From contig JALHMY010000003.1 of the NCBI GenBank assembly GCA_022843805.1, forward strand, positions 5,351-69,350: DNA of 64,000 bases. The letters run 5' to 3'. Shown here in pieces: positions 3,001 through 24,000 of this stretch (positions within the stretch are counted from its first letter, which is position 1; each line of letters begins with the position of its first letter). The stretch comes from Fuerstiella sp. (lineage in GTDB: Bacteria > Planctomycetota > Planctomycetia > Planctomycetales > Planctomycetaceae). The notes beneath the pieces were generated by a model, which saw nothing but the letters and a program-made list of their open reading frames with translations, made no database searches and was not told where the DNA came from. Made by a program: the position numbers and the translations under genes.

Positions 3001-6000
3001 ACTCCGGAGTTGATGTCTCCGGCACCGATGTCGGGATTCTGAAGGGTATACCAGCCCGACGCCGCATCAATGTTCTGGCCGACAGTCGTTGCGCTTTCCT
3101 GTTCAAGCACTGGCTGCGGCGAAAAGATGAATGCATCCCGCACATGTCCCTGGAGCGATACGTGAAGATCGTATGTGGCCCCGATCGGAATTCCGAAGAA
3201 TTCACGGTCCGAAATGCGTATGACATAGGTTCCAGGCTCAGTAATTAATGCCGCCAGTGATGCATCGGAGTCATTGTCCAGCCCGGTTGACGGATCCTGC
3301 AGTTCAATCACACCCGAAGCTCTGGTGCTGTTGTTGAGATTCCAGCCCCACCACGGATAGACGGGCCGGGCAGCGGCAAATCCACCGCCCGATTGTCTTT
3401 CAATGGAAATCGCTCCCAGCCAGTACACATTGCCACTGGTCTGGTCGATGTCCAGAAGGACTTTTAAACCACCGTCCGGAACAGTATTGACTGTGAACCG
3501 GAAAAAGTCAGATCGACCCTCGCCCGTTGCCTGGACAGTAATGTGGGGAATGGTGGTCGACTGAGAGATGCTCGGATTGCTGTAGTCGCTCCATTTGCCC
3601 AGGTCCAGATCCTGAGCGTTTCCAACATAGTCATTGTCAGCAATCTCCGACAACACGGACCCGCCTGAGGCTCCTGCACCAAAGCTTCCCTTTACGGACG
3701 TAGAGTTGTTGATTTCCAGAACCTGGCCGCCACCCACCGGTACAGTGGTTGTAACTTCCGTGACGTCGGTGCTGCCTTTCGACTGAGTGATCAGGATACC
3801 GGCGGTGTCATTGTCGATTATTGTGACGTCTACAGAATTTGCCCTGACGTTCAGATAATTCCCGGTGCCCTGAACAGCATTGATGATTCTGGCAAAGTGT
3901 TTCCCTTCCTTCACAGTATCGTTTGTTGCGGTGATCGTGACCAGCTGCGGAATTTTCCAGTCGTCCGGAGTAAACGTCAGAACTCCTGTTCCACCAATCT
4001 GCACCTGACTGTCAGAACTGACGGTCACGGTAACATTGTTGTCTGGCCGTGCATTCAATACCACGGAATATGTGTCCGTTGTTCCGCCTTCAACAACCTG
4101 AGTCGAGTCTCCTGATTTGGCGATCAGTACCCCAGGCCGATCATTATCGACAACCTCAACAACCATTCGGCGAATCTTCAGATTGTCGTACTCGCCACCG
4201 TCGCCGGCGAACAGACCTTCAATGGCTGTATGTCGAATCTCAAGGAATTCAGTGCCTTCCGCAACGGTGTCGTTAAACGCGGTCACGCTGACCGTCTGTG
4301 GAATAAACCAGTTTGTCTGATCGAAAATCAGAATCGTGCCGTTCTCTTCACCATTGACAGCAATCCCGTCAGCCAGCTGACCATTTCCCTTGCGGGTCGG
4401 CGTGACACTGACACGAACAGGTTCTGCCGGTGATCTAGTCAGTACCAGGGCATAGCTGGCCAGTGCCAGACTCTGCAGCGATGCGGAAATATCCTCAAAG
4501 ACTCTGAGGTTCAGATTTCCTGACAGGAGCTGCACACCAGCTTCTTCGTTGTCCATTACATTGACGGAGACATCCACTGGCGCGACGTTGTTATAAATCG
4601 GCACATGCTGGCCGTCACCGGTGGTGGTCACGACATGACGGATGATCCCGCTGTGTCCTCTCAGGTCATTGCTGACCACGCTGATCGCAGTCTCTTCACC
4701 CTGCGCGTTTTTATATCCTCCACCTACGTTAAACGTATCGCTGCCCTGTCCGCCGACAAGGCTTAGAACAACGTCATCACGTGTGCCAGCAATGTAGAAC
4801 GTGTCATTTCCTGCGAGTGCGTCCAGAACCAGCTTCTCGATTCCCTCGTACGAAATCGCCAGCCCTCCGCCGTAGATTCCATCTTCCGTAACGACAAAGT
4901 CCTCACCAAATTCCGTGCCCACCACAGTCAGAGTATCCAGCCCATCACCGCCCTGAATATTCACAGGCGCATTGACTGTATAGGAGATGAAGTCGGCACC
5001 CTGCCCTCCGTTAATGTTTGTGATCGGGGCATCGGGATCATCCGGATTGACACGCACGAATGCACGTACAAGGAAATTGTCGTTGTCCGCGTCACCGTAC
5101 AGGGACAATTCCGCAATATTGCGGTAAACCGTAAAGCTGTCGTCACCATCGCCGCCCCAAAGGCTGGCCGGAGCACTAATCCCGTTGCTCAGTGATCCGA
5201 GAGTCGTCGGGATCGTCGGAAAACGGTCAGCTTCAGCAATATTCGCCAGTTCGTCCCGCTCTGACTTGAAAATCTGCCCAATCTGGAACTTGTCATTGCC
5301 ACGACCACCAAAAATGTCCAGCGGAACACTGGTGTCATCAAGTACGAAGATGTCGTCACCTTCGTTACCCTTCACAACGATCGATTCCAGGTCGGCTGTA
5401 TACGCCAGTCGAATTGCACCACCGTTGTGGACAAAGTTGCCATACTGATCAATCTCCACGGCGGAAATGGAAACCGGACGGAACAGAAACAGATCGGCAA
5501 AGCGGCTTCCGTCCACTGTCAGCGCATCACTGTCCGTGCCACCGGCCACCAGCTCCACAATATTGATTGCCGCGTTACCTGTCCCCGTCATTCCCACGAA
5601 GTATTTATCAGAACCTTCTTCACCATGAAGGCTAAGGACTCCGGAGATTTCATTGGTTCCCGTCAGCTTTTTGCTGCTGTCGTGGTTAACGAAAATGTTA
5701 TCGTCGCCTGTGCCCGCGTTAATCGTGGTCGAACCGGCGGATCGGCGGACGATGATGTCATCGACACCGTCTCCGGCATTTACAGTCAGAGTCTCCTCGA
5801 CCGTTGACGTCAGCATAATCTGATCGGCACCATTTCCGGTATTCAGCGTCAGATGATCGAGGTATCTGGTTGGGCTGACCGTCACACTGTCGACAACAGC
5901 AGGTGTCGCATTCGCATTGATGTTCAGTACACCGGTTTCGAAGCCTGAGAACCACAGCCCATACTGATTCAGTCCGGAAACGACATCGTATCGCACGGAA

Positions 6001-9000
6001 TAGGCGGACGCTTCATCGCGGCTGGCCACATAAGCAGCGGGAACCACGACCTGCAGGTCTTCGACCCGGGTGATCGTCACTGTTTTAGGAACATACAGTC
6101 CGGCATCGTCCTGAATCTGCTCAATGTCCGCAGTGTGCGTATTGCCGTTCTTTTTCAGCGTAAGTCCATCAGCGACAGGCATCCGAATATCAGTACGCAG
6201 CTGCTGTTTAAATGCTGTTTCAATCAGACTTGTGACCGTGGCATCCGTGAAAGTCGCTGCAAGGAATGCACTATGCTGGCCCGATGTCAGCAACTGAAGT
6301 GAATACAGCGCATTCACATAAGCCGACCAGTTAGCAGCTGTCAGGTATACGCGATCCTGTTCAATCGCCTCAGCAGGTCCCAATACACTGCGAGCATCCA
6401 CAGCCACCATCGGCGAAATCGACTGATCCCTGTCATTCAGGCGACGCACCGCGACCGCTTCAAGCTTCTGGTTGCCGAGACTGTCCAGTCCGTAGAACGA
6501 CCAGGTGTAATACGATCGCTGGTAATTATCCATCGCCGCCACATAGGCACGCTCCATCCGAATCGGATCATATCCGTACTGTTGCCCGCTGATAGTTCCG
6601 TGAATCATATTTCCAGGGGCCGTGTTTCCCTTGTCACCATCGCGGAAGATCACCCACGAGATTTCGCGAAGAGTCCGAGTTTCGCCGCTGGTGTCGTTAT
6701 CCGGGAACATTCGGTTCAGATCGTCCGCGTCATCCCATGGGTCGAATCGTGACGCATAGGGAGTACCGCTGGAACGGTTGAACCAGTCTTTTCCATCTGT
6801 GTACTCTTCTTCCTCCCAGACCTTCTGATTGAACTTGTAGGTTGTTATACGCGAGGCAACCTGTGGCGTTGTCTGCTCATAAACCCTCAATCCGGGGTCG
6901 GCCGTCCATGTGAATCCCTGTGCAGTTCGCAAATCGCTGCTGACACTCGCAAGCGTGAGGAAGTCACGCAGCTGTTTCAGACTGGATTCCACGCTGATGG
7001 CTGAAACACTGCCATCCCCGGTCAGCTCTCTCAATGCAGTGGAGTTCAGCAATGCATCGAGCGCATCCACGGAGAACGACGCAGTGCTCTGTCCGTTCGA
7101 CAGTCCCGCCAGAATTTTTCCTCGAAGTACGAAGGCCTGCAGGTCCGTTTTCAGCCGCTGCTGCACAGCAGTCGACAGTCCGGTCAGGCCAGTTACAGCA
7201 GAATCCAGAGCGTTCAGCGAGGTCGTGATGCTGTAAGTGTTGGTGACGGTGTCCACGGAAACCGACACGGTGGCACTGTTCACCGTATTGTTGACGAGCT
7301 TCTTCAGAACGCCAATCTGTGTTTCCTTGTCTGCTCGTTCCAGAGCACCCTGCACATCGTCGTGAGAAATGCGGGGATCCAGCGTCAGTGCACTCAGATT
7401 GTAAGTGTAATCAGCCAGATCAAGCACCGTTTCACCCAGCGACATCGTAATGCCGTCGCTGTCGGCCGCATTGATTGTGAAGGTATCCCCAAAGGTTTGC
7501 CCCTGGACCGTCTCCTGCGGACCGCCGGCAATTCTGACGACACCGGCAATTCTGCTAATGTCAAAGCTGGCTGGCATGATCTTTGTTGCCTCACGCACAG
7601 GCAGCTGATCGAATCGATACGAAGCGGATCCGGAAACCGTTTCCGTGTCGAAGTTCTGCTCCACATTGATGATATTGTCCGGCGCAGGAGCGGCGATATC
7701 ATAAAAGAGTGTGATCAGGTCCCAGAACATACGCTGGCCCTGACCGGAGGAACTCCAGGTGTCGGTCCAGACATCCTTTTCCCCGGAAATGTGCGGCATC
7801 CATCCGCCCGCCGGAATCTGATGAGTATAAAGATCGCCCAGGTAAAGGTCGGGTTCCCAGCCCCAGTTCGCAATTCGAGCACTGCCGAGGCCTGTCCCCT
7901 GTCGCACCTGATCCGCCCGGATCATGTCGCCATAGATCGTGTAGGCAACCGCCGGGCGCAAATATTCATTCAGCAGAATCTGGTCAAGTGACCTTCCGTT
8001 GGCGGAGAACCGATTGCTGGCACTCACAACGCCGGTGAGTGTTTCGAAATCGAGCACTGCCGGCATCTGAGGCGCATAACTGTTCAGAAGTGCTGGATAA
8101 AGATAACTCGAATACACCGTCCTTCTGCCAAGATTCAGGAATCCATAACGGTACGAGTACGAGCTGACTGTCTGCATCCACCACCGACCACCATTGGTGT
8201 TCTGCAGCTGCTGTTCAAACGCATTGACGTTCGACAGCAGATCCTCGCGTTCTTCCCGATAGGCCGCCCAGCCGCGTGTCAAAAGAGTCCAGATGTTGCT
8301 GAGCGGTACAATATTCGACGAAGATGCCGCCAGTTCAATGGCCTGAGCATACAGCTTCAGGGCGACCGCAAGGTTTGCTTCCAGCAGGTTCCAGTGTTCT
8401 CTGGAAATCGTTACGTTACTCAGATCACGATCACTGATGTCGGATTTCACCCACTTCTTATAAAAGTCTCTCCACGCCTGCTGTTTTTCCACAGTCGTCA
8501 TTGAGAGCCGATTGAACGACAGATTGTTGTAGTTGATCGTCTGATTTTTAAACCGCTCCTTCACCACGTTCTGCTCGACCGTGTAGACAGCACTCGACTT
8601 CGGATAAGTCACAGTGAAAGTCTTTTCCTCCCCGCCGATGATGACCTGATCGTTTCCTGTTCCGGTGTTGATCAGCAGGCTCAGAGATGACTTCAGACCG
8701 TACAGATAGACGATGTCGTCACCGGAGCCGGTGACGAGCGCCAGTCGTTCAATACCGTCAATGTTCTCCAGCTTCAGTCCGGCGCCATACAGGTATTGCC
8801 GATTGTCGGCGTCTGTGAAGATGTAGAAAGTATCAGCCAGTGCGGTTCCTGCAACAACCACTGTGTCAAAGCCGCTGCCCCCATAAATGGCGACTCGGTT
8901 GTTCTCCAGATAGTTAATCAGAATATTGGATTCGTCTGCCTCAATATTATTATTAACATCGCCTGCCCCGGCAGTAATCTCGGCTCCCCCAAGTGAACTC

Positions 9001-12000
9001 GATGTTGGATTGTTATCCGGTCCCTGAGCCAGCAGCTGTGCTTTCAGAAAGAACATGTCGTCGCCAGCTTCACCGAACAGTTCCAGCACGCCCACGTTAT
9101 GATTGACTTCAAAGTAGTCGTCACCACGACCGCCAAGGAAGACGGCGTTGTAACTCACTCCAGGCGTGACACCGTCTTCACCGTCAATAGCTTCCACTGA
9201 CTGCTGATTGACAGTCACAGTCCTTGTTTTGATGACTCGGCCAATGACAAAATTGTCGTCGCCCTGATCACCTGAAACAACGATCGCGGCCATGGTGTCG
9301 TCCACGATGAACGTATCGGCGCCCTGACCACCACGGATATCCACCAGTTCTGCTGTGCGGTCGTAGAAGACTCGCTGATAGGTCAGCGGATTCGTTACCG
9401 TTCCCGACTGTCTTGTCGTGGCGGCAGCATCGGCAATATCCATTGGCCGTGTGATGACCGACGTATTCTGAGTGCCAATTGGCAGGTAGTTACCTTTGGT
9501 GTCCTTGTCCGCAACAATCAAAGTAACACGGAAAGGATCACGATTCGTGCCAGCGCCTGTGACAGTCGCCGAGGTGATCGTCGACAACGCCTCAAGCGCA
9601 GCCTCAATCTGTGATGCCGTCGAATTGTGATTCAGCTGTGTTGTCTGCTGCCCATTGTAGACCAGCTGGTAACTTCCGGTTTTCCCGGTCAATACGTTAA
9701 ATATCTGAGTCTCGTAGCCGGGACGCTCAAACATCGCGTCAATATCAGGTTTTCCGTCCAGCAGCCCGGGAACACCCTGCGGAAGTCGAGTGACCGTGGC
9801 CCGGCTGACCCGGGCTTCATAGCTTTGGCTGGTCGTGCCGATTCGGAACAGCTTTCCTTCCGCATTCGCCGCGTTCGGATTGGTGTGTTCCAGCTCGATT
9901 TTCCACAACATCCCCTGACCGCTTCCTGATCGTGTTACGACAACGCTGCTGAACAATGGGACACTGTTCGCTGTCAGCGCAAGAAGCGCGTTACGCACAT
10001 CCGACTCTGATGCGTTCTCGGCAAGACTGGAAGTCGTGAATCCGTGATACGTCAGCGCGAAGTTGCCGGAACCTTTGCGCTCAATTTCCTGGTGAGACGT
10101 ATCGGCATCCAGATGCAGAGTGTCGTCATCCTCTCCGCCGGTGATCTGAACACTGTCAGAATCCGTGCTTCCGGTGCCCGTATCCGTGACATAGACAGCA
10201 GACTGCAGATTGACTGTGCCCGTTAGTGTGAGCACATAGTTGTCACTGCCTTCGGTTCCGTCCAGCCAGGCATTCTTCGTGAATGCCGTTACGGCGAAGT
10301 TATTGATTCCGGCTCCGCCAAAGATCTCAAACTTCTCAAAAACTCCAATCCCTTTGGTGAGCGGATGATCCGGGTCAGAAGTTTCCACCTCACTTACGGG
10401 GTTCATAAGCGACGGATCGATCAGATCGCGTTCCAGACCAGTTACCACAAACTCCAGGTCTGAAATGCGGAAGTTCAGATTGCGAACTTCCTGCAGAGTA
10501 TCTGTCCCCGAGATATCAAGAAACGCGTCAACTCCGGCGCCTCCGGTGACAATGTCATTCCCGGCCCCGGAATCGATGATGTCAGCACGACTTGTGCCAA
10601 CGATGCGGTCGTTTCCGGTACCGCCGAGCAGCTGCAGTTTGTCAACGGCATGGGCTGAAACGATATCCTGAAGCACCACATTCAGATCAGGATCTGCTTC
10701 AAGTTTCGGAAGGAAGCCTGCTACCAGGCGGTCATCGCCCCCACTTCCGTCCACTGAAATCTCATCGTGATCAACCTGATTCGCGGGGTCGTCCAGATCC
10801 AGACCCCGGATTTTAATGACGACTTTTCGAGTGTTATTGAGCGTGCCATCAGAATTCAGGCGGCGGTGACTGATCTGCAGCGTATCTGTTTTCGTCTCAG
10901 TTACCGGGTTCTGTTCGCTGTCGAGTTGTCCGGTGAGAAGGACTTCGTGGCCGATCAGGAAGTAATCACGCAGTGCTGAACCGCTGATACTAACCTGATC
11001 CACGTCCTGGTCTGTCACCCAGGACGGATCTGTAAAGAAGTCCGTCTTCCCGGTTTGTTCCAGTATTCCGTCGCCATTGAGGTCGGCCCATACCGGACGC
11101 TCAACAAGTCGCGGACCTTCCTGTTCAATCGTCATGTGCGGAGAAATGTACTTGTCGTCTGACGCACCCGATTCGCTGCTTCCAAAAATCGCCAGTTCGA
11201 CCGGAATCACCTGCCCCTGAGCGTCCAGACCACCACCTCGAGTCATTTGCTCCCAGACACCGAGTTCGCTCCTCTTCTCAAGCGACGACATGGTCTCGAT
11301 CGGATTGTTTGCCAGCGAATGGAAGTCACCATAGTCAATCGTCACGATCAGCGGATTCGACGGATCATATCCCTCAATCGTGATCTGATATCCCAGTGTC
11401 GCAAGTTGTGAATCGTCAATCCGGACCCGAGTACCGGGATTCAGCTGATTAAGCAGTGTCTGCAAACTTGCCAGTGTTTGCGGATCGCCGAGCGGGAGTG
11501 CTCCGGGCTGGAATCCCCGCGAGTTGCCATTGAAGAAGAATCGTACAAATTCAAGATCTGCAGCAATGCTGATACGTCCCAGTGTCACTGTTGAAACGTC
11601 GAGAGGCGAAATCAACTCGCCGCTGACGAACTCAAGCGAGTGCAGGTTTCCGGAATCCGGGATGCTCACGACGAAATTTCCGGAAGAGTACACGACGCTG
11701 GCACCTGACAATCCTGTTAACGTTCGGAGCCGGGTCTGCAGAAGTGCTGCCTGTCCGGAAGTGCTGACCGAATCGATGTCGGTGGACCGTAATGCCACGG
11801 TCTGGCCGTTGTACCTGAATGCACTGCCTTCAACGATCTGGCGTCCCGGGACCGCCTGGGAAGTTAACGTGCCGTCCATAAAGGCATCGTCGAAATCATC
11901 TCCACTGATGATCTTTAGTTCGGCCGTCGCAGCGTCTTCAAAGTAGATGAAGAAGTAATCAGAATCGTAACCCACTTCTGCATCGGCCAGCCCGTTCAGT

Positions 12001-15000
12001 GTTCGGATTTTCGACTGCAGCAATGCAGCCTGCTGGGCTCTGGTGCCGACAGTAATATCTGCAGATGTCAGAATAACAGACTGGTCACTAAAGAACAGCT
12101 GCGTGCCGGTTACAACATCTGCTGTTGCGATCTGAATGCCTGGGGTAACGGCGACATCCGGCGTAACATCTCCATAACTGCCGAAATCGTATTCAACGGT
12201 GACTGGAGTGTCAGAGTTGTAACCTGAGAATCGGATGTTCCAGGGACTTCCCTCAACTCCCGTGCCCAGCACAGAAACCGTGCCATTATTCAAACTATTG
12301 AGATCCGTCACCAGAGCGTTTCGGATGGCAGTCGCGTCTCCGGCAAGAGAGATGACTTTTGTCGTCTGTCCCTTGCGGAATGTGACTGCGCTGAGGCGCA
12401 GCGGCAGTACCGTTGATCCGGTGGTGACGATGGTCGGACCAGCCTGTTCGCGTCCGGAACCATCGGTCCGCACATAAATAACCGGGGCAGGCACCGGGAA
12501 TGAGACGATGTAATGACCTGTGCCTGCGGATTCACCTTCAGCCCATGACACGGTTACAAGATTCAGCAGCTGGATGGTGCGCAGCTTCGTCTGGAGAATA
12601 CCGGCCTGCGCCTCTGGCGTGCCTGCGATGTCAGCTGCCGCCAGAGTGATTGACTGTCCCGAATAAGTCAGAACAGTTCCGTCAGTAATGACGACTTCCG
12701 GAATTGCCTGGAGATCCGTTCCCAGAAACTCGTTTGGTACGGCATTCTCTGTGCTACCGCCTGTGACGAGGTATTGAACGGGCTGCGACGCAGGCACTGT
12801 TACGCCAAAATATCCGCCATCAGCGGCATTCCAGGTCACCACGATATTTCGAAACGAATCGCTCAGTGCCCGGAATTTCGTCTGCAGAGTTGCAGCCTGA
12901 ACACTGGTGTCCGCCGAAATATCTGCCGGCGCCAGAGTAAAGCTCAATGTGTCATCAACAAACTGAGTTCCAGCGACTACAGCAGCGCCAGGGATTCGCT
13001 GCGTTGCTGTTGAATAATTCTCTGAGACCTGAAGCGGGACCTTCATTGCCTGAACTGCGACAACAGATTCCAGGACAAAATAGTTTCCATACTGATCCGT
13101 GTCCGCATCCAGAAAGACGATATTCCAGGGATCCTGAATGGCCGTCTGCAGGAGTGACGCTTCAATGAATGTGGAATTATCCTCATAAAGCATTCGCTGC
13201 GGATTCTCTGTCGGGAAGCTGACTTCGAATTCGTTCGACTCTTCGAGCCATGCGACCGTTACGTTCGTCAGGTCTCCGCCACCTGCTCTGAGTGCCGCCT
13301 GCAGATTTGTTGCCTGTACAGTCGGATCGTCGCTGATATCCGTCGCTGACAGAGTTACTGTCACGCTGGCGTATTTCAGAACCCGTTCACTCGTGATGAT
13401 TTCGGCCGACAGCAGCTGTTTCTGCGGATTCGGAATATTCAGGATTCGGCCACTTCCCGTGACCCAGACATCTCGAATGCTGTCCATAGATTCGAGCGCA
13501 GCTTCGACTTCGGCTGCGGTCATACCTGCCAGCAGATCGACGGTGTCGCTGCCATAGCGGACAGTCAGGTAACTTTGCCACTCCGCCGGAAGAATTGACT
13601 GAGTTGCAGGCGAAGCAGTTCGCGACGTCCTTTGAAACGAGAATGGAAGATTCTGCGAGTCCATTCCCTGGCTGGTCTGAATGACGCTCGACTGACTGAA
13701 CGTTTCGCTGCGGATTCGCAGGAACGCTCCTTCAGCGTCCGTTTCGGCCACGACCAGATGAATCAACCATGGACTTTGGGCTGTGCCCAGCCCGGTGACA
13801 TCCACTCTCTGAATCCCGGACAGAGATTCCAGCGCTGTTCTGACGTCAGCAGCGGTGATCGTGGATGTGCTGATATCCACTCCACTGTTGCCGTAGAATA
13901 CTGTGATGGCGGAATTTTCAGCGCGTACAAGCGTCTGCACTGAATTTTCCGGACTCTGGCTTACAGTGTTCACCGGTTGCGGAGAATTAACAGTCTCCTC
14001 AACCATATACAGCATTTGCTCAAATTCCTGCCCTGGCTGAATCGACGTAAATGTGGCCGTCCAGTTGCCCGCAGTGCCGGTTACGCTGACGGTCGCACCT
14101 TCAAGATTTCCTTCCAGAACATTAAAGGCCGTATTTACCTGGTCGAGCGTCATGACCGTTGTCAGAGGCAGACGGATACGTCCATACGATACAACGCCCC
14201 CTGATGCTCCATCAAAATTGATAGTCTGAATCGAATTCTGCTCATTAACGGACCCCGCAATAAATGGGAGCGACATCTGATGGGTCGGCATAGCGGAGAT
14301 CGAATAGTAAGCATCGTCTGAATCTCTCGCCGCGTCGGTCAGCACGATGACCCATGGTGCGGTCGACTCTGACCCCGATTCCACGGAAGCTGCTGTCACG
14401 TTCGAGAGCGCCTCCAGCGCCGCTTCAACGGCGGCCGGACCGTCCTGCAGATCAATCACAGACGTTGTCTGACCATCGTATGTCAGAGTAATTCGCGATG
14501 CACCGGCCGGGAGCGACAGCAGCTGCCTGCTGTTGACTGTCGCGTCCAGTGTCTGAGAAACTGCAGTCGTGCGCGTGGCCTTCTCCGAACTGTCCAGGAC
14601 TCCACCACCGGAGACCAGTTCCAGAGCGTAATATTGCCCATTCAGTTTCTCTGCATCAGAGAAATTGAATGCCCATGGATCCGAAAGTGTTCCCGTGCCG
14701 CTCACCGCGACAGAGTCAACCCCCGCGAGCAGCTGCTCCATCCGCGCCTTCAGAGTCGTCGCCGTATCGGTGGACTTAACCACAATACCTTCGTTGCCGT
14801 ACCACAGAATCGCGTCTTTTGTTTCGCTGATATCCCATGAATTCAGGTAGACAAACTGAACCTGACGGCCTTCAATCATCGTCGCGGCCGTTGCCTTCTC
14901 AATCAGCACCGGCGCGTCAGCAGTCGCCGGATTTCCATCGTCCTGATAAAGGTAAACGCCGTTGACATCGGAAAGGCGGTAGAATCGCTGAGCAACCCGT

Positions 15001-18000
15001 GTGTCGTCACGCTGGGTGAGAGCTCCAATGTACGACTGAACCTGATAGTGCTGTGCAAACTGCAGATATCGTCCGCTGCTGTCGGTGGTGGCACCGGTGA
15101 TCGTGATCATCCATGGATCCGCCAGAGTGCCGGATCCTGTAATACCAACAGCGCTGACCTGATCCAGCGACTCAAGTGCTGATTTGATCTCCGCGGCCGT
15201 CATTCCGGACCGAATTTCGACGGAGTTGCCCTTCAGTAACTGATTGTTAACGATACTGTCAGGTATCCGGCCATAATCCGTACCAAATTCGTCATAGCCG
15301 TAATACAGAGTCACCCGATCGAGCCCGTCAGCCAGGCTGACAGACTGAGTCTGATTAACGTTTCCGCTGACGTCCGCGGGAAGTGTGATATCGCTAAGCC
15401 GTGGAGAACCATCGGAATTAAACAGATAAGTGCCATTTTCCGCCAGATCGTAGCGGTAGAAGTACTGCCCTTCGCGCAGCCCTGTCCCGCTGCCGAGAAC
15501 CCCGTCAGGCTTCTCGTCAGTCACACCGTAACTGGTCGGGAAGACCTGGTGACTGCCGCTGACATCACGCTGAACGGTCCACATTTTGGCCAGGTCAGAA
15601 CCCAGTTGCAGGTCTACCGACTGAATATCCGTATCCAGCAGGTCGGTGACACTGATGGTGTCGCGCCCGGTGCGACCATCAATACTGACGTCCTCAACCC
15701 CGTCCAGCAGCATGGTGTTGGCGTCGATCGTCAGAAGAGCATCACCAGCCGCCGGAGTATCAGAGGCTTCTTCAAGACGAATCGTGTTGTTTCCATCAGA
15801 CTGAGCACTCACTGTCACCTTCAGCTCATCCCGCAGACCATCGCCGCCAGATATGGTTAGGTTTCCAGACTGGCTGAAGGCGGTGTAATCCCACACGATG
15901 GAGTCATCTCCCGCTCCCCCGTCAACGTCGACTGCACCGGATCCTGCTTCAATTCGATCGTTGTCCTCTTCGCCCCGAATTGTGTTGAATCCAGTTCCTC
16001 CGATCAGCTGATCGAAGCCCTGGCCTCCGCGAATTGTATCGCTGCCGTCACCGCCATCAATCACATCACCGTGAAATGCCCGAACGGTGAAGTTGCTGTT
16101 CGTCAGCACAACCAGCTGGCCATTACCCTGTGCATCGGGGGCCGACGTAATCGGACGGCCCAGTTTATCGTAGTAGTCAAACGGAGTGCCGTTTGCCCGA
16201 TAGATCTCGGACACTCGAAGTTCTGCCCCGGGTGTCCACACCGACCCGGTGACCGGAGAGTAAGCGGCAACGTCACGAATTGTCAGTTTTGATGTATCGG
16301 CTGGATAAACGCGTGAACCAAATTCGTCGCCACCATCCAGTTCGTCATCGCCACCATTGCCCACGATAATGTCGAAACCATCCAGACTGGCATTTGTCGT
16401 GACCGAGTCATCATGCCCGCCAAAAATGCGGTCAGGTCCGTCACCCCCGGTGAGTTTGTCATCACCGATTCCGCCCTCAATCGTGACTCCGCTGTAGTCA
16501 GTGTAGATCCCCGTAACTTTGACGCGGTCGTTGCCGGCCTGGCCCCTGAGTCGATACGCGGTTGCTGGTGTGTCGGCGCCCGGTGCCAGCAATGACGAAT
16601 CGATGTTGATATAGTCGTCACCGTCCCCACCGAGAATCACAACAGACGTAAGTCCGACGGTACCATTGTTTTCTGTGTCTCCCGTGGAGTTGACCGTGTC
16701 ATTGCCGCCACCGAGAGTAAAGTCGAGGTGTTCGATGACCCCATCGATTTTCCTCAGATCGTAGACGTCATTTCCATTGGTGCCGACGACCTTCAGTGTG
16801 CTCACTTCACTGTCCAGGTACACAGCCACCCGCTGACCGTTACTAACAATGATTGCCTTCTGCCCGGCGTGATTCGAACGGTAACCGGCCAGCTTGTCCC
16901 GCAGATTCGTCTCTTCGTCCCGAGACGAAAATTCGGGATCAAAGTATCCATCAGTCAGGAGTTTTGCCAGAGTCAGATCGTCATCAATCGGCAGAGCTTC
17001 GACTTTATAGGAGTGTCGTGCCGGTGCTCCATCGGTCATATAGACAGAAGTCGGATCATTGGCATTATTCAGGTACTGCAGCGTAAGAGTCGTACCGCTC
17101 AGCTGCGAAATGCTGTTTGGTGCATCATGCACACATTCCCAGTCGAACTTAGCGATGACTTCATCCACGAATCGTTCGCTTGCTTCGAACAGCGTAATCG
17201 TGCTGAAGCCCAGATCGATACCGATCCACAGGAATGCTTCCAGAAAGACGGACAGCTGGCCATTCACATCAAAGAGGCATTCCACGCCATGAGTGAGCCG
17301 ATCGACCAGCTCACTTCCATATAACTTCCCATCTCCGACTGGCAGATCGTTCAGAATCTGTGTTTCGAAGTCGTTCAGATCGAAGTTAACATTGGCCTGC
17401 AGACCCCCGCGAACTCCAGCCTCAACCAGCCCGCCGATTCCAAGGCTGACACTGGCACCAATCTTTGCCGTCAGACCCAGTTCGGGCCGGTCGCTGGCAG
17501 TGTTCTCCTGCCCATGGTCATCCAGATAAAACCCGTTGAAAATCCTCCACGATTCTGCAGGATCAAAATCTTCATCCATCCACTGCCGCAAACCGCGAGT
17601 ATCAAATCCGAAGTCAAAGTTCGTGAAGGCTCCCACACTGCCGAACAGGCCCGCATTCAGGCCCGGGAAAATCGGGAAACTGCGGCTGTATTCGAAGACC
17701 AGATTCAGGTCCGGCAGGTCATACCAGAACAGATCAACCTCACCTCGCCCCATCACAAAGTCCAGCAGCGACATTGGGTTCTCCAGCACAGGAATGCTGA
17801 AGTTCTTTCCGGGCGCTCGTTTTTTGGATTTGGTGGCAGAACTGGTTGTCAGAGAATTGCTGTCAAGTCCCTTCTGATCGGGCCCCTTCAGCAGTGCCTT
17901 CTGATTGCCGGTCAAATTTGCATCATTCTTCTGAGAACCGCTCACATCGGCGCTGCTCAGTTCAGCGCTGGGATTCTTCAGAGTCGATTCTGTCAGATTA

Positions 18001-21000
18001 AATGTGCCGAAATTAATCGTTCCGGCCGATGCAAGATCATTGATGTTCTCAAGAAATTTGATCGTACTGTCAATGACCTGCAGTACTTTGGTCATTGTCT
18101 CAACGGTCTTCGCCGGCAGACGCAGTCTGGCAATGTCAATGAATCGAATCGGCGGACTTGCAATTCCACCAAGCGGAATCTCGAACAGCAGCAGATCGAC
18201 GACTGGCTTCAGCGGGGTCACGATGTCGTGAATTGTGCTGAGCGTCGTGCCCAGGAAACTGCGGAACATACTTCCGACGTCAAGTGTCACGTTCTCCAGA
18301 ATGACTTCCGGACTGCCAAAGTCGATCGTTGCCTTTCCACTGGTTGACAGCTGCACATTGCCCAGCATCTGAGCATAGTGAATGGTCGTCGAAATCGACG
18401 GAAGGAAGTTGCCGGCGATGGATTCCACTGATGCTGCCAGATGAGCTTCTGCCCAGGCTGATGCATTCAGGGCCAGAGTAACTCCTTCGCCCACCTTCCA
18501 TTTGCCATCATTGTTGGCATCCTGAATATTCAGACCAAAATGACCCCACAGGCCCGTGTCGTTACCTTCCGCGGTCGACTCCGTGAACTGCATTTTCAGA
18601 AAGCCGAGCGTACCGGTTGCTGTGGAACCGTTTCCAAGTGTCGCAGACACGTCAAGTGACAGTTCTTCCCCGGATTCATTGATTCCGGTCGTGTCGATAA
18701 AGAACCCCATTTGAGGAATCGGCCCTGCGCTGACGTTACCGATTCCCAGCCCAATCCCCATCAGATAATCGATATGAGCCAGCAGTTTTGCGTCAACGTC
18801 GAGGTTGACTCCCGGGATTCCGGCGGAGAAGTCAATCGGGAGTTGTCCGTCAACCAGAGTTCCCCCAAACATCAGGTTAAATGTAATCAGTCCGCTCGCC
18901 GAGAACGTCAGCTGAATATCTTCGAAGCTCGTGGGAACCCTGACGAGTAGCTTTCCTGATGAGTCGTACTGCTTGGCCCCGAATTCATCCAGTTGCGGTA
19001 CGACAAAGGCAAACAGAGATCCGGAAACGCCATTCGTTTTCGCACCAGTCATCTCATTCAGCGCATCGAATCCGTTGAACAACTCCTGACGAATTTTGTT
19101 CAGAACGCTGTCAATAATGCTGGAGCTTCCCTGATCCTGCAGCCATTTCCCAAGGCCCTGACTGTAATTTGAGCCAACCTTCTTTCCGAGTACGCTGCTG
19201 CGAATATCGCGCAGGGTATTGGCGAGACTGTCGAACGGGCTGCCACCAATGACCGGCAGTTCGATCGAATCGATGCCCTTTGCAATAGTGTCAACGCCGT
19301 CAAAGAAGCCTTCCATGCCCCTCAGCACGTTTCCAGCATTGTCGATATAGGCGATGAATGCCTGTACCGCATCAAAGCTCATTGAGATGCGTGGCAGTGA
19401 ATAGCTGTAGGTTGTCTGCAGAACAAAGGTTTCATCAACAGAAAATCCGACATCGGCGTGCAGAACGTTGTCCGCCACACCGTTTCCATCCCGGTCCGCC
19501 GTTGTACCTCCGAGTGGCAGAGACGTAGTCGGGAAGAACATCGGAAGATCAATCGATGCGTTGCCGGACAGTTCCGCCTGAAACGCCGATCGCAGAGACA
19601 TGGGAGAGATTCGTCCGTCGCCGTCTGCGTCCGCTGCCGGATCTCCAAAGTCCGCTTTGAATCCGGCCTGAATTGCAGCCGTACCGTTCACGATGTACAA
19701 GCCGAGCGGCGGCAGATTCACGGGCCCAATGGAAGGAATATCAATCGCCAGACTCGCGTCAATGTCTGAGGCAATACCTGACGCAGAGGCGACGATGCCG
19801 GTATCCGCGTCCACTACGAATGAGGGATCAAAGACATTGCTCAGATCAAATCCAAATCCCAGATGCAGGTCCACACTGGCTGCGACCTGAACCGGCGCTG
19901 TCAGGCTGATGTCCAGGAATTGAGTGGGGTCAAAACCCAGCCATTGCTGCAAATTCAGCTGCTTTGCGTCGAGTTCCAGATTGTACGTGCGGCTGATCGC
20001 CTGTTCGAAGTCCAGATCAAATTCGAATACTCCGCCGCTGTACGACATCGTCACCAGGTTGACGCCGGCAGCCAGCCCAAAGAACGTTCTCAGTTCTTCA
20101 TTAAGCTGGTCCTGCAGCTGACCAATGTTCCTGGCAGAATCACGCACTGTGTGGATGGCGTTTGCAAAACCGCCGGCAAAGCTGACTGCCCCGTCGCCCA
20201 GCATATCTGCCAGACTGACTCCCAGCATCGGGATGTCGTTGTACAGCTCGCCGTCGCGAAGACGAATCAGACTCAGATTTCCCGTGGTCTGCGACGCCCC
20301 ATTCTTCAGGGTCACCCCTGCCTGAACATCAGCCGTCAGGCGACTGATTGCCACGTCGTCGGCGTCGTAAGTGGCGCTCAGCCGATAGTGATCAATGTCG
20401 TATGTCTGCACCTCTGCGGTATTCGGTCCCGTGGCCGACTCAATACCCCAGACATTCAACCCGCTGTGCAACCATTCGGTCAGTCGCAGTCGATTGCCAT
20501 CGGTATCTTCGACAATCTTCGAATTCTGAACGCTGCCATTGACGACAGCTGTATAACCGGATGTCAGCAGAGCCGCGGTGCCCCAGACTTCGCTGTAGAC
20601 TTTCAGCTGTCCGCCGGTAAATTCACCGCTGGCAGCATCAACAGATCCACCGACCAGCGTTCCCAGCAGCTGGGTATCTGTTCCCACCAGATCATCCGCC
20701 ACGTCCTCAAGCGCTGCCAGGATCGTGTCAAGTGACAGACCACTGAACTGCAGCAAATCCGACATGCCAGTGATGCTGATCGTCGACGGCAGGCTGGTCA
20801 GGAAGCTGGTCAGTGAGGCTCCGGGCTGAATCAGTGTGCTGGTCGCGGTGATGTAGCCAACTCCATCACTGATTCCATCCAGCAAACCGCTCCATTCGAC
20901 TGGCAGAACAATCGTAAACTGACTGTCGTCACCCAGTGACACGTCCAGATTCTGGAGAAGGTCAAACGCGCTGCCACCACTTTGCAGTTCTGTAAACGTC

Positions 21001-24000
21001 AGTTTCTGGTCAAACCCAAGTCCGGCCGAGATGCCCAGCGAAATGATTGCATCGTTTGACTGTAACCCCAGTGGCCCCAGATTGATGCCGAAATCCATCG
21101 TCTTGATCAGAGAGCCATCTGCTGTTTCTGACGGAAGATCTTCAGCGACCACAATGGTTGTCGTATCGGTGTAGATGTTATACGTGGCTGACGTCACGGT
21201 ATAGATGGCATTGTTTTCAGTGGAACCGGCAACGGCGATTCGATCTCCGGCCACAAAGTGCCCGTTTGCCGAATTCAGCTGCCCGTTGGGTGTCGTCCAG
21301 TTGCCTGCGATCTGCAATGAATTTGACAGCACGTCAACACCAAGTATCGCGTGCTGAGTTTCTCCGAATTCCACTGAAGCGCTGACATTCGGGTCCAGCA
21401 CATAAAACCGACCATCACCGTCGATCCCGAATGCAAATTCCAGCTGGACTCCGGCTGTCAGCTGCAGTGGCTGACTTTGAGTGGTCGAAAGACCGAAGCT
21501 GAAAGGCAGTTCAATGTCGATTCCATAGTCCGAGAGGTCCAGGGAGAGTGTACTCAGATCGAGCACAATCGACTTCGAATAACTGGCGAGATCGATTGTG
21601 GCAAAATATTCCTGGACACCCGGAGATGTCGCGATCTGAATTCCGGGAAGATCCTGCAGCGCCAGCAGCATGCCATTGGTGTCAGGCGATGTGGCACTGC
21701 CGAAATAACCGGTGATCGCGTCCGAAATGTCGTCCACGCGGTCATTCACCGTCGCACCGAAATCTGCTGTATCCACTCCAAGCATGCTCACCAGACTAAT
21801 GTCGGTAAACGGGATGGTTGTCGCATTGGTCAGAAAATCGTCAATTCGCTCACCCAGATTCTCCGCCCAGTCACCAAATGCATCGAGACCGGCTGCCAGT
21901 TTATCCTCAGATGACAGACCCGTTTCAATGTGTCCGACAGTCGGATTGAGCCGAACCCCCGTCTTCAGACTGTGATTCATCAGATCAGATGAATCAGGTG
22001 TTTCAGGATGATCAATACCGGCGACGTGCCCCAGCTCATGCATCAGAACGGTTAGCAGATCGATGCCGACAGGCGGACTGCTGGCAAATTCACTGTCACC
22101 GGATGCTCCGGTAAAGTTTGTATCCACGTACCAGCCTGCACCTGCCGCATTGTTGTCCAGCGTCAGGTCATATTTACTGGTCGCGGAGTTCCATACAACG
22201 CCGGCGATGGTGGTTCCGAGCTCCGAGATCTGAATATTAATGGCGCCCGCACTGATATCCAGACGGTCGGGCAACAGGGCGTTCCAGCGTGCAAGTGCTT
22301 CGGTCGCCAGTCCCGTAACCTGCGACACGTTTGTCAGTGAAACTCCACTGTTTCCGGAACCTCCGTCTGCCAGTACCACCGGACCACCGAGCAGTTTCTT
22401 TCCAAACAGTTCATTAATTGCGCCGGCTGAGCTGCTGGTTGCCTCTTTGATTCTGAATGCGCCAAACGCCGTGACACGGTTGTCACCCCATGTAAAGATT
22501 GTCGCACCGTGTTCCGAAGCTCGCGTTACCTTGCCACTGACTTTTGTAAAGTCGAGCACGTCGTCCCCGCCACCGCCATACACAAGGTTCCTGCCACTGT
22601 TATCGGTGAAGTAGAACGTATTGGCTCCGGAATCGCCCATCAGGACGTCATTGAATCGGGTGCCCTCAATGCCTTCAATGTTGCTGAGCGAAACAGTGGA
22701 TGCCGAACTGGTAAACTTCACCAGACCAGCTCCATCTCCGTTTCCAGGGTCAGCTGTTGCTGACAACACTGTGTCCGTGATCGATGCATCAAACGTCACA
22801 TCGAACGCTTCTGTGCCTGCGTTCCACACCACGGTCACTTTGCCTTCGCCCACGCTGGCAAGCTGTTCAAGCTCATGCTGTATGGCCTCACTGCTGGCAT
22901 TGAACGGAATACGAGCCGTGGTGTTGCCCGAATGAGTCAGTGTCAGCAGACCGGCGCTGGCATCGATTGAGATCGATGTCCCGGAGATGGTCACCGATCC
23001 GACTGTCAGACCGGTGTGAGCAACACCCGCTGCAAGATCAATTACCATTCTCTGCGGTGAAGCTTCAAAGATGACAGTGTCGTCTTCATCCCCGCCGTCA
23101 ACAACGTCACTGCCGCCGTGGCCAAGATTGAAGGTGTTCTTCTCGTCGTTACCGCGGAGCAAATCCTTCAAAGCCGTGCCTGTCGCCGAACCAAGACCGT
23201 CAACAGCATTGTTTTCCGGAGCGAATGAGCCGAGTGTTCCGGAAGGCACCCATAAATCCAGACCGGCCAGCCGACTGCCCAGTACGGCCGAGGCCCGTCC
23301 CCAGTTGACATTCACACCCGGGAACGTTCCGAGCACCGGAAGGGGAGCTTCTGTACCTGGTATTCCCCAGGACAGTCCTGCGGTACCGTCAACAACAATG
23401 CCGTCATACGTGACATTGTCGACAACTGTTGAGCCGGACGGTGTGTAGTCGCTGTAGTCGAAATGAATGCTGCCCCCGTCCCCGGCTGCCACGTAACCAT
23501 CCAGACGTGCGTCTCCATGGAACTTGAAGGTGTTCTTCCCTTTTCCTCCGATGATGTTTTCGATGCCCGTTGCAATCACATAGTTGAGGCCAAAATCATC
23601 AAATGAAACTGCCCCTCCCAGAAGGTCGGCGAATCGTTCTATAATCTGTGTACCAGCGTCATTCCGCGCAAGCACAAGCGTCATTCCGACCGACAGCGGC
23701 ATCGGATGACCCAGGGCATTCAGTCGACTCTGCCAGTCCCCAATATTGTCTGTCGACAAAGTGTAGATATCAAATGTGTTGTCCCCGCTGACAGCATTGA
23801 AGTCCAGCGTGTCGAATCCAAAATTCAGGTCGACGCCGGCGTAGACTGAAGGCGGTTCCACCACAGCGGCAACCCCCCAAAGACCGCTGAAACGGTACGT
23901 ATCCCCGCCCGTCATGCCGGACATCAGATGAATGCCAGGTGCGATCACCGGTTCGCCGATTGACAACTGCCCTTCCAGCAGACTTGAAGTCAGTGTGTCT

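Follow-up and report, generated by a model that had tools for sequence, protein, structure and literature searches.

A conserved four-unit module with calcium-loop-like motifs in a giant RTX-type protein of Fuerstiella sp.

The locus described here raises the question of what the long and unfamiliar middle part of a giant bacterial protein is, and what role it can have, when it is found between a protease motif and a calcium-binding beta-roll. The DNA is a stretch of 64,000 nucleotides from Fuerstiella sp. (contig JALHMY010000003.1, positions 5,351 to 69,350), which we call the window, and the part in question, the core, is encoded at window 16730-21971 on the minus strand, corresponding to amino acids (aa) 3258-5005 of a giant open reading frame (ORF). 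As judged from profile comparison, the core is composed of four diverged tandem units of ~340-410 aa and one lineage-specific inserted beta domain, and the module is an undescribed domain family without a solved or curated relative. With a probability of roughly 0.55, the core would be a scaffold or binding platform that is latched by calcium outside the cell and that makes up the conserved folded part of a widespread family of RTX-type exoproteins; the evidence points to a part that is neither an ordinary stalk nor an obvious enzyme. The ORF, the units and their borders are as follows.

Window 3-31742, minus strand: giant ORF, one open frame, 10,580 aa within the window.
Window 21921-22445, minus strand: minimal matrixin-like domain (aa ~3100-3274) with HELGHVAGIDH and a Met-turn-like SDLM, directly upstream of the core.
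Window 20688-21920, minus strand: unit 1 (aa 3275-3685), with the start helix SSEDKLAAGLDAFGDWA, a TIPF..SMLG motif and a poorly modelled insert at about aa 3470-3560.
Window 20301-20687, minus strand: inserted beta-rich domain (aa 3686-3814), between units 1 and 2.
Window 19296-20300, minus strand: unit 2 (aa 3815-4149), with an IPMLG helical part, long hairpins containing LHLGFGFDLS and SFVVD, and two calcium-loop motifs.
Window 18201-19295, minus strand: unit 3 (aa 4150-4514), with an IELPVIGG helical part, the hairpins IDYLMGIGLGIG, GFFIDT and GTLGFLKM, and the loop DANNDGKWKVGE.
Window 17028-18200, minus strand: unit 4 (aa 4515-4905), with FSIPVLENP, LFWYDLPDL, NFDFGFDTRG, GFYLDD and a Gly-rich hairpin; the most conserved unit.
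Window 16323-17027, minus strand: junction and onset of the RTX beta-roll (aa 4906-5140), with HemolysinCabind matches downstream.

An earlier note, made from the letters of this DNA, had placed the core between a metzincin motif and a beta-roll block, and this position was confirmed, with an intact HExxHxxGxxH motif on one side and the RTX beta-roll on the other. The motifs it quoted were all found (HELGH at aa 3235, DADGDGRIS at aa 4038 and DRDGNGVADN at aa 4083), as were the other two quoted strings, LGLTAKIGASVSLGIGGLVEAGVRGGLQANVNFDL (the Gly-rich LGLTAK... segment) at aa 4755 and TSSATKSKKRAPGKN at aa 4633. Its C-terminal edge at aa 5005 does not coincide with a domain border, the end of unit 4 being near aa 4905. 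The core truly begins with the opening helix of unit 1, S-x-x-D-K-L-x-x-G-L-x-A-F-x-D-W-A, at aa ~3277-3295. The host protein carries GGxGxDxUx nonapeptides, matches to PF00353 and a beta-roll, and the core itself is without any of them; in Pfam searches, DUF4347 was found at aa 120-279 of the giant ORF and RTX repeats (HemolysinCabind) were found both N-terminal and C-terminal of the core.

The same note had called the core the longest non-periodic stretch of the ORF. At the level of BLAST this description stands, since comparison of 200-aa windows with the whole protein (E<1e-4) left aa 2801-5225 as the longest stretch free of internal repeats, but profile-profile comparison revealed a cryptic four-fold repeat. 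When the homologue alignments of the single units were compared by hhalign, unit 2 was matched with unit 3 (95.9% probability, E 5e-9, 145-147 columns), unit 3 with unit 4 (93.7%, E 1.9e-7, 137 columns) and unit 2 with unit 4 (89%, E 2.2e-6, 120 columns), and unit 1 was matched with unit 2 when the alignments were extended to take in the helical parts (93%, E 3.4e-7, 169 columns). Each unit consists of a helical hairpin, very long antiparallel strands with one greasy face and an EF-hand-like DxDxDGxxxxxE loop, and the recurring motifs are an (I/L)P-x-x-G helical start, LxLGFGFDLS, FYVD and GTLGFLxx, followed by that loop. The inserted beta domain between units 1 and 2 is lacking in P0004, P0006 and P0018, the alignments of which jump from about q3685 to about q3825. 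Among matches with enough upstream sequence, a three- or four-unit form dominates, and a two-unit form also exists.

The predicted structure shows the same pattern. Two AlphaFold models were made with a 20-sequence alignment each, and they were read as secondary structure and predicted local distance difference test score (pLDDT). In both, helical hairpins of 23-29 residues alternate with hairpins of 13-25-residue strands. Model 1 (aa 4200-5140; mean pLDDT 80.6, predicted template modelling score 0.56) contains long hairpins and helical hairpins, with unit 3 at pLDDT about 80 and strands of 20-25 residues. Model 2 (aa 3258-4260; mean pLDDT 61.5) is poor up to residue ~430 and, in much of what follows, reaches about 70-90: unit 1 was modelled with low confidence (pLDDT 30-60), the inserted beta domain forms the strands E432-572 (mostly 60-83, with one block down to 57), and unit 2 reaches 70-90. 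Among the most confident parts of model 1 is the passage from unit 4 into the beta-roll (residues 680-820), mostly at pLDDT 90-95 and with short regular strands from residue 763, and in the model unit 4 would be structurally continuous with the beta-roll that follows.

The statement that the core has no recognisable family was upheld by all five kinds of test applied to it, namely Pfam/NCBIfam, PDB sequence, PDB profile, Foldseek-PDB and Foldseek-BFVD. Pfam and NCBIfam gave nothing between aa ~3260 and ~5050, the matches being confined to a weak Peptidase_M10 on the upstream side and RTX repeats on the downstream side; the Pfam copy searched was one without PF26766 (Choice_anch_L), and newer releases might hold further families. 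A phmmer search of the core against all PDB chains returned noise only (E>0.4). When a profile of 15 homologues was compared with PDB, the core was unmatched and the matches were confined to the RTX part (profile positions 1662-1922), where the RTX structures of CyaA, serralysin and lipase were hit, starting just after the core. This RTX part serves as a positive control: because it was matched and the core was not, the profile method works and the core is without a solved relative. With Foldseek, neither AlphaFold model gave a PDB match at E<=0.001 (template modelling score (TM)<=0.12), and model 1 gave only meaningless matches in BFVD (probability<=0.21, TM<=0.09), the top rows of which, ssRNA-phage maturation proteins at TM<=0.08, were dismissed. 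In the literature searched on DUF4347, LEPR-XLL and giant RTX/metzincin proteins, no description of the module was found.

If the core were an ordinary spacer, a simple answer to the question would be that it merely lengthens a fibrillar adhesin, and two points agree with this, as the host is a giant, repeat-rich calcium-binding exoprotein and the core is built of tandem units. The conservation of the core does not fit this explanation. Identity per 200 residues peaks within it, with 76-82% in close orthologues and 46-62% across phyla over aa 4001-4800, compared with 25-40% in the flanks, and the peak of the whole gene is found in unit 4 (aa 4601-4800), which is 58-62% identical to gamma- and betaproteobacterial orthologues. 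Such a peak indicates a functional module rather than a spacer. In addition, units of 340-410 aa with helices and 20-residue strands differ from Ig-like sandwiches of ~100 aa, and the copy number is fixed (2 or 3-4) rather than variable. The 90-110-aa sandwich repeats of Ig-like, cadherin or BIg stalks were not found in the core, nor was any Pfam or Foldseek match to a stalk. Since no other part of the gene is as well conserved across phyla, a stalk role is highly unlikely. Both outcomes that the earlier note had set against its own idea, an ordinary adhesin stalk fold and a lack of conservation, are contradicted; the region is neither Ig-like nor cadherin-like.

The family to which the core belongs is large. 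A search of a 5.8-billion-protein set, restricted to the core, returned 8 giant proteins at 29-55% identity and 21 shorter entries, which are fragments. When aa 3825-5005 were compared by phmmer with 1.84 billion representatives of clusters at 50% identity, 924 were matched at E<=1e-3, 649 at E<=1e-10 and 214 at E<=1e-30, and the most widely shared part was roughly aa 4274-4894, which corresponds to units 3-4. A scan of species-representative genomes gave 60 loci with a best-segment identity of 39-74%, most of them spanning nearly all 941 residues. By record title, these loci, from MAGs (metagenome-assembled genomes) or isolates, belong to Planctomycetota, Verrucomicrobia, Lentisphaeria, Betaproteobacteria (Accumulibacter, Burkholderiales) and Gammaproteobacteria (Amphritea, Psychromonas, Pseudomaricurvus, Simiduia, Colwellia and Cellvibrionaceae), and the closest relatives are MAGs of Planctomyces and Planctomycetaceae.

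The long strands of the units are clearly amphipathic, with a mean odd/even hydropathy gap of 2.88 compared with 1.22+/-0.19 after shuffling, a value reached by 0 of 2000 shuffles. Particularly, the Gly-rich segment that had been suspected of forming amphipathic beta strands is predicted as a strongly amphipathic hairpin:

Window 17376-17480, minus strand: Gly-rich amphipathic beta-hairpin (aa 4755-4789), strands E556-570 and E574-590 of model 1, pLDDT about 75-91.

The odd/even hydropathy difference of its two strands is 4.6 and 5.8, and A576, G577, G580, G581, A584 and F588 are near-invariant. The earlier note had speculated that the core could be a processed, membrane-interacting or effector-like part, and one explanation of the hairpins is indeed a membrane-inserting module, in which they would act as pre-stem elements that insert after calcium binding or proteolytic nicking and give a pore, a translocation module or an anchor. 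The 13-25-residue strands have one hydrophobic face made of small residues, the disordered basic loop of unit 4 (described below) could be an activation site, a metzincin adjoins the core, and the least-bad structural neighbours are also of this kind, since the top Foldseek-PDB rows are TonB-dependent outer-membrane barrels and the pore forms of MACPF/CDC, leukocidin, gasdermin and aerolysin. However, all those matches are non-significant (E>=1.5e-3, probability<=0.2, TM<=0.12), and we rejected them as relatives; the common geometry of long hairpins is sufficient to explain them, and amphipathic hairpins are a feature of any two-layer fold. Comparison with the pore-former families (aerolysin, leukocidin, MACPF/CDC, gasdermin) gave a best E of 0.015-0.9 at probability<=0.2 and TM<=0.12, with no Pfam match. 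The hydrophobic-face and Gly/Ala positions are nearly invariant, which is typical of buried packing and not of lipid-facing surfaces; no transmembrane-like segment was found in the core, where the maximum 19-residue hydropathy is 1.49, and the module lies mid-chain in a protein of >12,000 aa. On this balance, we regard insertion into membranes as quite unlikely. Still more doubtful is a calcium-triggered beta-hairpin machine, in which the hairpins would leave the helical hairpins and insert into the outer membrane of the producer or the membrane of a neighbouring cell, so as to fix the giant protein in place or to give its downstream parts a way through, with the basic loop or the metzincin as the trigger.

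The invariant and near-invariant columns of the close and distant alignments are Gly, Pro, Phe/Tyr/Leu/Ala and Asp/Asn/Glu, with one Lys and no His, and the core is strongly acidic (222 Asp+Glu versus 89 Lys+Arg). The Asp-rich motifs noticed earlier proved by column conservation to be conserved sites resembling calcium loops, and the loops and other local features of the units are as follows.

Window 19605-19631, minus strand: DADGDGRIS (aa 4038-4046), EF-hand-like loop of unit 2; D 66%, D 50%, D 71% or N 13%, and G 76% over 38 sequences.
Window 19467-19496, minus strand: DRDGNGVADN (aa 4083-4092), thrombospondin-type-3-like or EF-like calcium loop of unit 2; D 97%, D 63% or N 34%, D 68% or N 29%, G 89%, D 95% and N 92%.
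Window 18486-18521, minus strand: loop DANNDGKWKVGE of unit 3 (aa 4408-4419); D 85%, D 74%, G 81% and E 53% over 78 sequences.
Window 17307-17351, minus strand: EF-like loop of unit 4 (aa 4798-4812); D 97%, G 97%, K 87% and E 97% over 119 sequences.
Window 17133-17279, minus strand: span from Cys4822 (window 17277-17279) to Cys4870 (window 17133-17135), the only Cys in the core.
Window 17802-17867, minus strand: basic Ser/Thr/Lys-rich loop LDSNSLTTSSATKSKKRAPGKN (aa 4626-4647) inside unit 4; pLDDT<50 at aa 4628-4641.

By hhalign, the DADGDGRIS loop of unit 2 aligns with the loop of unit 3. The 12-residue EF loop consensus is matched by sequence in unit 3 and in distant homologues of unit 4, in a beta-strand setting rather than in a helix-loop-helix; EF-hand_1 scored 24.6 bits in the distant homologue P0136 (cut-off 25.4), and the window protein was unmatched. 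From these motifs, we infer that the core binds calcium. The conserved Cys are confined to one pair, which co-varies: both residues are present in 67 of 82 sequences, neither in 14 and one alone in 1, each being about 77% conserved. This is as expected for a disulfide of an extracellular protein, and Cys4822-Cys4870 probably forms one. The Lys/Ser-rich stretch that the earlier note had read as a linker turned out not to be inter-domain, since it lies mostly in the low-confidence, probably disordered loop inside unit 4. This loop varies in sequence and in length (8-43 aa): among the closer relatives listed, most have a long version rich in Lys/Arg, and in distant members it consists of about 10 non-basic residues. 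It is the sole hint toward processing of the core and appears to be at most a variable surface loop and a candidate nicking site.

The acidic residues could also be taken as those of an unrecognised enzyme, acting for example on polysaccharide or matrix, because some invariant ones (D4714, D4742, E4754 and D4825) lie outside the EF-like loops and unit 4 is extremely conserved. No enzyme family was matched by sequence or fold, the conserved set is otherwise purely structural, and the same acidic pattern is repeated in every unit, as expected for metal sites; an enzyme is thus the explanation in which we place the least confidence, and a very improbable one.

The metzincin that precedes the core offers another possible answer. 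Its Peptidase_M10 match ends at aa ~3259 and, with 21.7 bits, is below the gathering cut-off of 24, and no Peptidase_M10_C match was found by Pfam in the core, which is neither the catalytic domain nor its known C-terminal partner. The core could nevertheless be an exosite, a regulator or a self-cleavage substrate of the adjacent metzincin, comparable to the hemopexin domains of matrix metalloproteinases or the beta-roll of serralysins. The order of M10-like motif, core and RTX repeats is kept across phyla: among the 36 loci with an upstream frame open for at least 3,000 aa, 29 contain HExxHxxGxxH at 1345-2174 aa (in most 1345-1771 aa) upstream of LFWYDLPD, the distance from the zinc motif being 1436 aa in the window protein. 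Furthermore, in the Amphritea and Psychromonas loci a homologous matrixin-like domain could be aligned with HExxHxxGxxH intact; in L004 HExxHxxG is kept and the third zinc-ligand His is replaced. However, the protease domain is absent and the core is kept in six loci of Pirellulaceae, Verrucomicrobiae, Cellvibrionaceae and Simiduia (L008, L020, L025, L033, L038 and L049). The opening helix of unit 1 was detected by BLAST in L008 and L020 (E<=0.007) and weakly in L049 and L038 (E 0.4 in the latter), and BLAST of L025 and L033 gave no convincing match to it. Compact relatives carry units 3-4, and no protease domain was detected in them. The core is thus not simply an appendage of the protease; besides, unit 4, which is the most conserved, lies farthest from the protease. 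We consider a role as protease partner unlikely, if the least so among the alternatives.

The compact relatives are informative about the module itself. Whether the core occurs as a stand-alone protein had been raised earlier as a question; a protein consisting of the four units only was not found, and units 3-4 do occur in compact RTX proteins. When the search for the full core was limited to proteins of 960-3,060 aa, only pieces of giant genes were returned. For example, P0014, P0011, P0018 and P0022 have frameshift-like tails, and P0014 is one of six consecutive gene calls into which one broken giant gene is divided, its order being DUF4347, RTX, M10, core and RTX. The orthologous giant gene is also broken in two long-read MAGs, being split into six gene calls in L001 (ERZ25039600 contig_32827) and containing 40 in-frame stops in L020, so many database 'proteins' of 1,000-2,400 aa with the module are frameshift fragments. 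Units 3-4 followed by RTX repeats are found in the much shorter proteins P0140, P0149, P0156 and P0165, of which P0149 has the N-terminal leader ...LEVRRVLSALP, and in P0136 DUF4347 is directly followed by units 3-4. The profile search for compact members, in which the beta-roll columns were kept, was swamped by unrelated RTX proteins, and only high-coverage matches were used. Another compact relative, P0181, is a protein of 2,593 aa encoded on a 1.35-Mb contig. It starts with Met1 at the helical LPIVG motif; unit 3 is matched by the first 340 residues (hhalign 95.3%) and unit 4 by residues 335-704 (E 1.5e-38), and RTX repeats follow. Because its gene (L074 10001-17782) stands directly after OEP, ABC-exporter and AprE-type adaptor genes, P0181 at least is likely exported by type I secretion, the module forming the non-RTX domain at its N-terminus. 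A precomputed annotation of P0181 with PF26766 (Choice_anch_L) was set aside; it sits elsewhere in the protein and is uninformative on the module.

Our preferred reading, that of an extracellular scaffold or binding platform latched by calcium, is based on several lines of evidence taken together: the family is large and conserved; its large units, fixed in number, keep Gly, Pro, aromatic and acidic positions; the loops are EF-like and the Cys pair co-varies; the core is strongly acidic and always adjoins an RTX beta-roll; and a compact member is linked with secretion genes. RTX proteins of the CyaA substrate type fold outside the cell from the C-terminus to the N-terminus, driven by calcium, and by analogy we propose that folding begins with unit 4 and ends with unit 1. 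In such a mechanism, the acidic chain would stay unfolded in the low-calcium cytoplasm and would then be exported, and folding outside the cell would proceed backwards from the beta-roll, from unit 4 to unit 1. Ca2+ would lock each unit, and the disulfide would lock unit 4 additionally. The end product would be a rigid acidic platform, which would carry the adjacent metzincin domain where one is present and would offer its conserved surface to an external binding partner.

Some points weigh against this reading. The scaffold or binding role, which we infer, rests on composition and context, unit 1 and part of unit 2 are poorly modelled (mean pLDDT 61.5), some activity that goes unrecognised could explain the very high conservation of unit 4 equally well, and membrane-inserting proteins likewise show long hairpins that are greasy on one side. 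As to export, the C-terminus of the protein is missing at the contig end, and the type I models TIGR01842 and TIGR01843 found nothing above their curated cut-offs in the Fuerstiella sp. genome.

Several observations on the gene and the genome can be added. In the assembly, the giant frame is open over 12,364 aa up to the point where contig C3 ends; the gene is thus cut off by the assembly, which lacks the C-terminus and any secretion signal. DUF1501, VWA, AddA-like helicase and LpxB genes are its neighbours and, taken with the closest relatives named above, they place the 9.2-Mb genome in the Planctomycetaceae. From about aa 3037 to 8728, the protein is colinear at 37-40% identity with giant genes of Gammaproteobacteria (L019, L010 and L009, from Amphritea, Pseudomaricurvus and Psychromonas), so the entire downstream body of the gene is common to different phyla, and the alignments suggest that a very large gene segment may have been transferred across phyla. 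The first 3,000 aa are much less similar to the gammaproteobacterial genes than this downstream body. The second-longest span without internal BLAST repeats, 945 aa at aa 7757-8701 (about window 5640-8474, minus strand), overlaps an aromatic-rich module of the earlier note and is colinear with the gammaproteobacterial orthologues.

With regard to secretion genes, a 727-aa ABC exporter (157 bits, TIGR01842) stands beside a 518-aa HlyD-like gene (46 bits, TIGR01843) at G000:C71:4964-7813 on the minus strand; this pair is possibly type I-like, both scores being far below the curated cut-offs. The Amphritea, Psychromonas and Simiduia genomes each contain a true HlyD. Near its N-terminus (aa 38-53), the window protein contains ...LENRTLLSGDP, which scored 13.7 bits with PF07595 (cut-off 25.5) and 11.8 bits with NF012209 (cut-off 17). 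On another contig of the genome, C36 (L073, G000:C36:47000-66000), an operon of three HlyD-type adaptor genes (628, 384 and 732 aa) was found together with a second giant gene:

11025-12911, 9846-11000 and 7640-9838 of L073, minus strand: adaptor ORFs, the last with a weak Peptidase_M50 match.
3-5591 of L073, minus strand: second giant gene, at least 1,863 aa, without a Pfam match, following the adaptor operon on the same strand.

The N-terminus of this second giant protein reads ...LLRLVHLEDRRVLNG / ...KRKRLLRLVHLEDRRVLNG, and its leader, ...LEDRRVLNG, is of the same type as the LENRTLLSG of the window protein. Such an HlyD/M50-type route is a lead for the export of the window protein rather than a finding.

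Aquatic bacteria commonly carry giant calcium-binding exoproteins, and the domain libraries searched have no entry for most of the non-repeat parts of such proteins. The module described here defines a large family (>900 clusters at 50% identity in several phyla) with a confidently predicted fold and no solved relative. What is new is the four-unit repeat anatomy, the statistics of the calcium loops and the Cys pair, the pattern of protease presence and absence, the identity profile along the gene, and the compact two-unit relatives linked to secretion genes. The compact two-unit form would be tractable for expression and structure work; naming and solving the module would annotate thousands of entries now called 'hypothetical' or 'calcium-binding protein', and a solved module would reveal what such megadalton proteins do at the cell surface. 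There is no direct medical or applied consequence.

Compared with known systems, the module shares single features with several of them. First, DANNDGKWKVGE of unit 3 fits the EF-hand loop pattern D-x-[DN]-x-[DN]-G-x-[ILVW]-x-x-x-E, and DRDGNGVADN fits the DxDxDGxxDN type of thrombospondin-type-3 loops. Unlike in EF-hands, the loops stand between beta-strands and not in a helix-loop-helix, the Pfam score is below the cut-off, and the binding of calcium is predicted from sequence. Second, serralysin-type metzincins (PDB 1SAT, 1KAP class) likewise contain HExxHxxGxxH with a downstream Met and a later RTX beta-roll, and it is serralysin structures that the beta-roll of the host protein matches; in contrast to them, about 1,750 residues of unrelated fold here separate the catalytic motif from the beta-roll, the M10 match does not reach the Pfam cut-off (21.7 versus 24 bits), and the whole is embedded in a protein of >12,000 aa. 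Third, loci of the secondary SecA_DEAD, Peptidase_M50-HlyD and GAF-HlyD types were described by Kamneva, Poudel & Ward 2015 (PMC4452313), who covered the machinery and not this module. The LENRTLLSGDP leader and the three-HlyD operon beside another giant gene on C36 resemble the LEPR-XLL / Planc_extracel cargo of those loci, although the leader matches are sub-threshold and the HlyD locus is not beside the window gene.

Finally, the RTX adhesins exported by type I secretion (the LapA, MpIBP, SiiE and FrhA class; review PMC3034196) are likewise giant and acidic with several blocks of RTX nonapeptides. They differ in that the core is without their described ligand-binding or Ig-like extender domains, the own genome of the window protein is without type I genes above curated cut-offs, and its N-terminus consists of DUF4347 and an LE-x-R-x-LL-type leader rather than a LapA-type retention module. 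With these adhesins our system has in common a non-repeat functional region beside a beta-roll, a compact relative encoded after OEP/ABC/AprE-type genes and a presumed calcium-dependent folding, and the host protein of the module is of a known kind, namely that of the giant RTX-type calcium-binding exoproteins.

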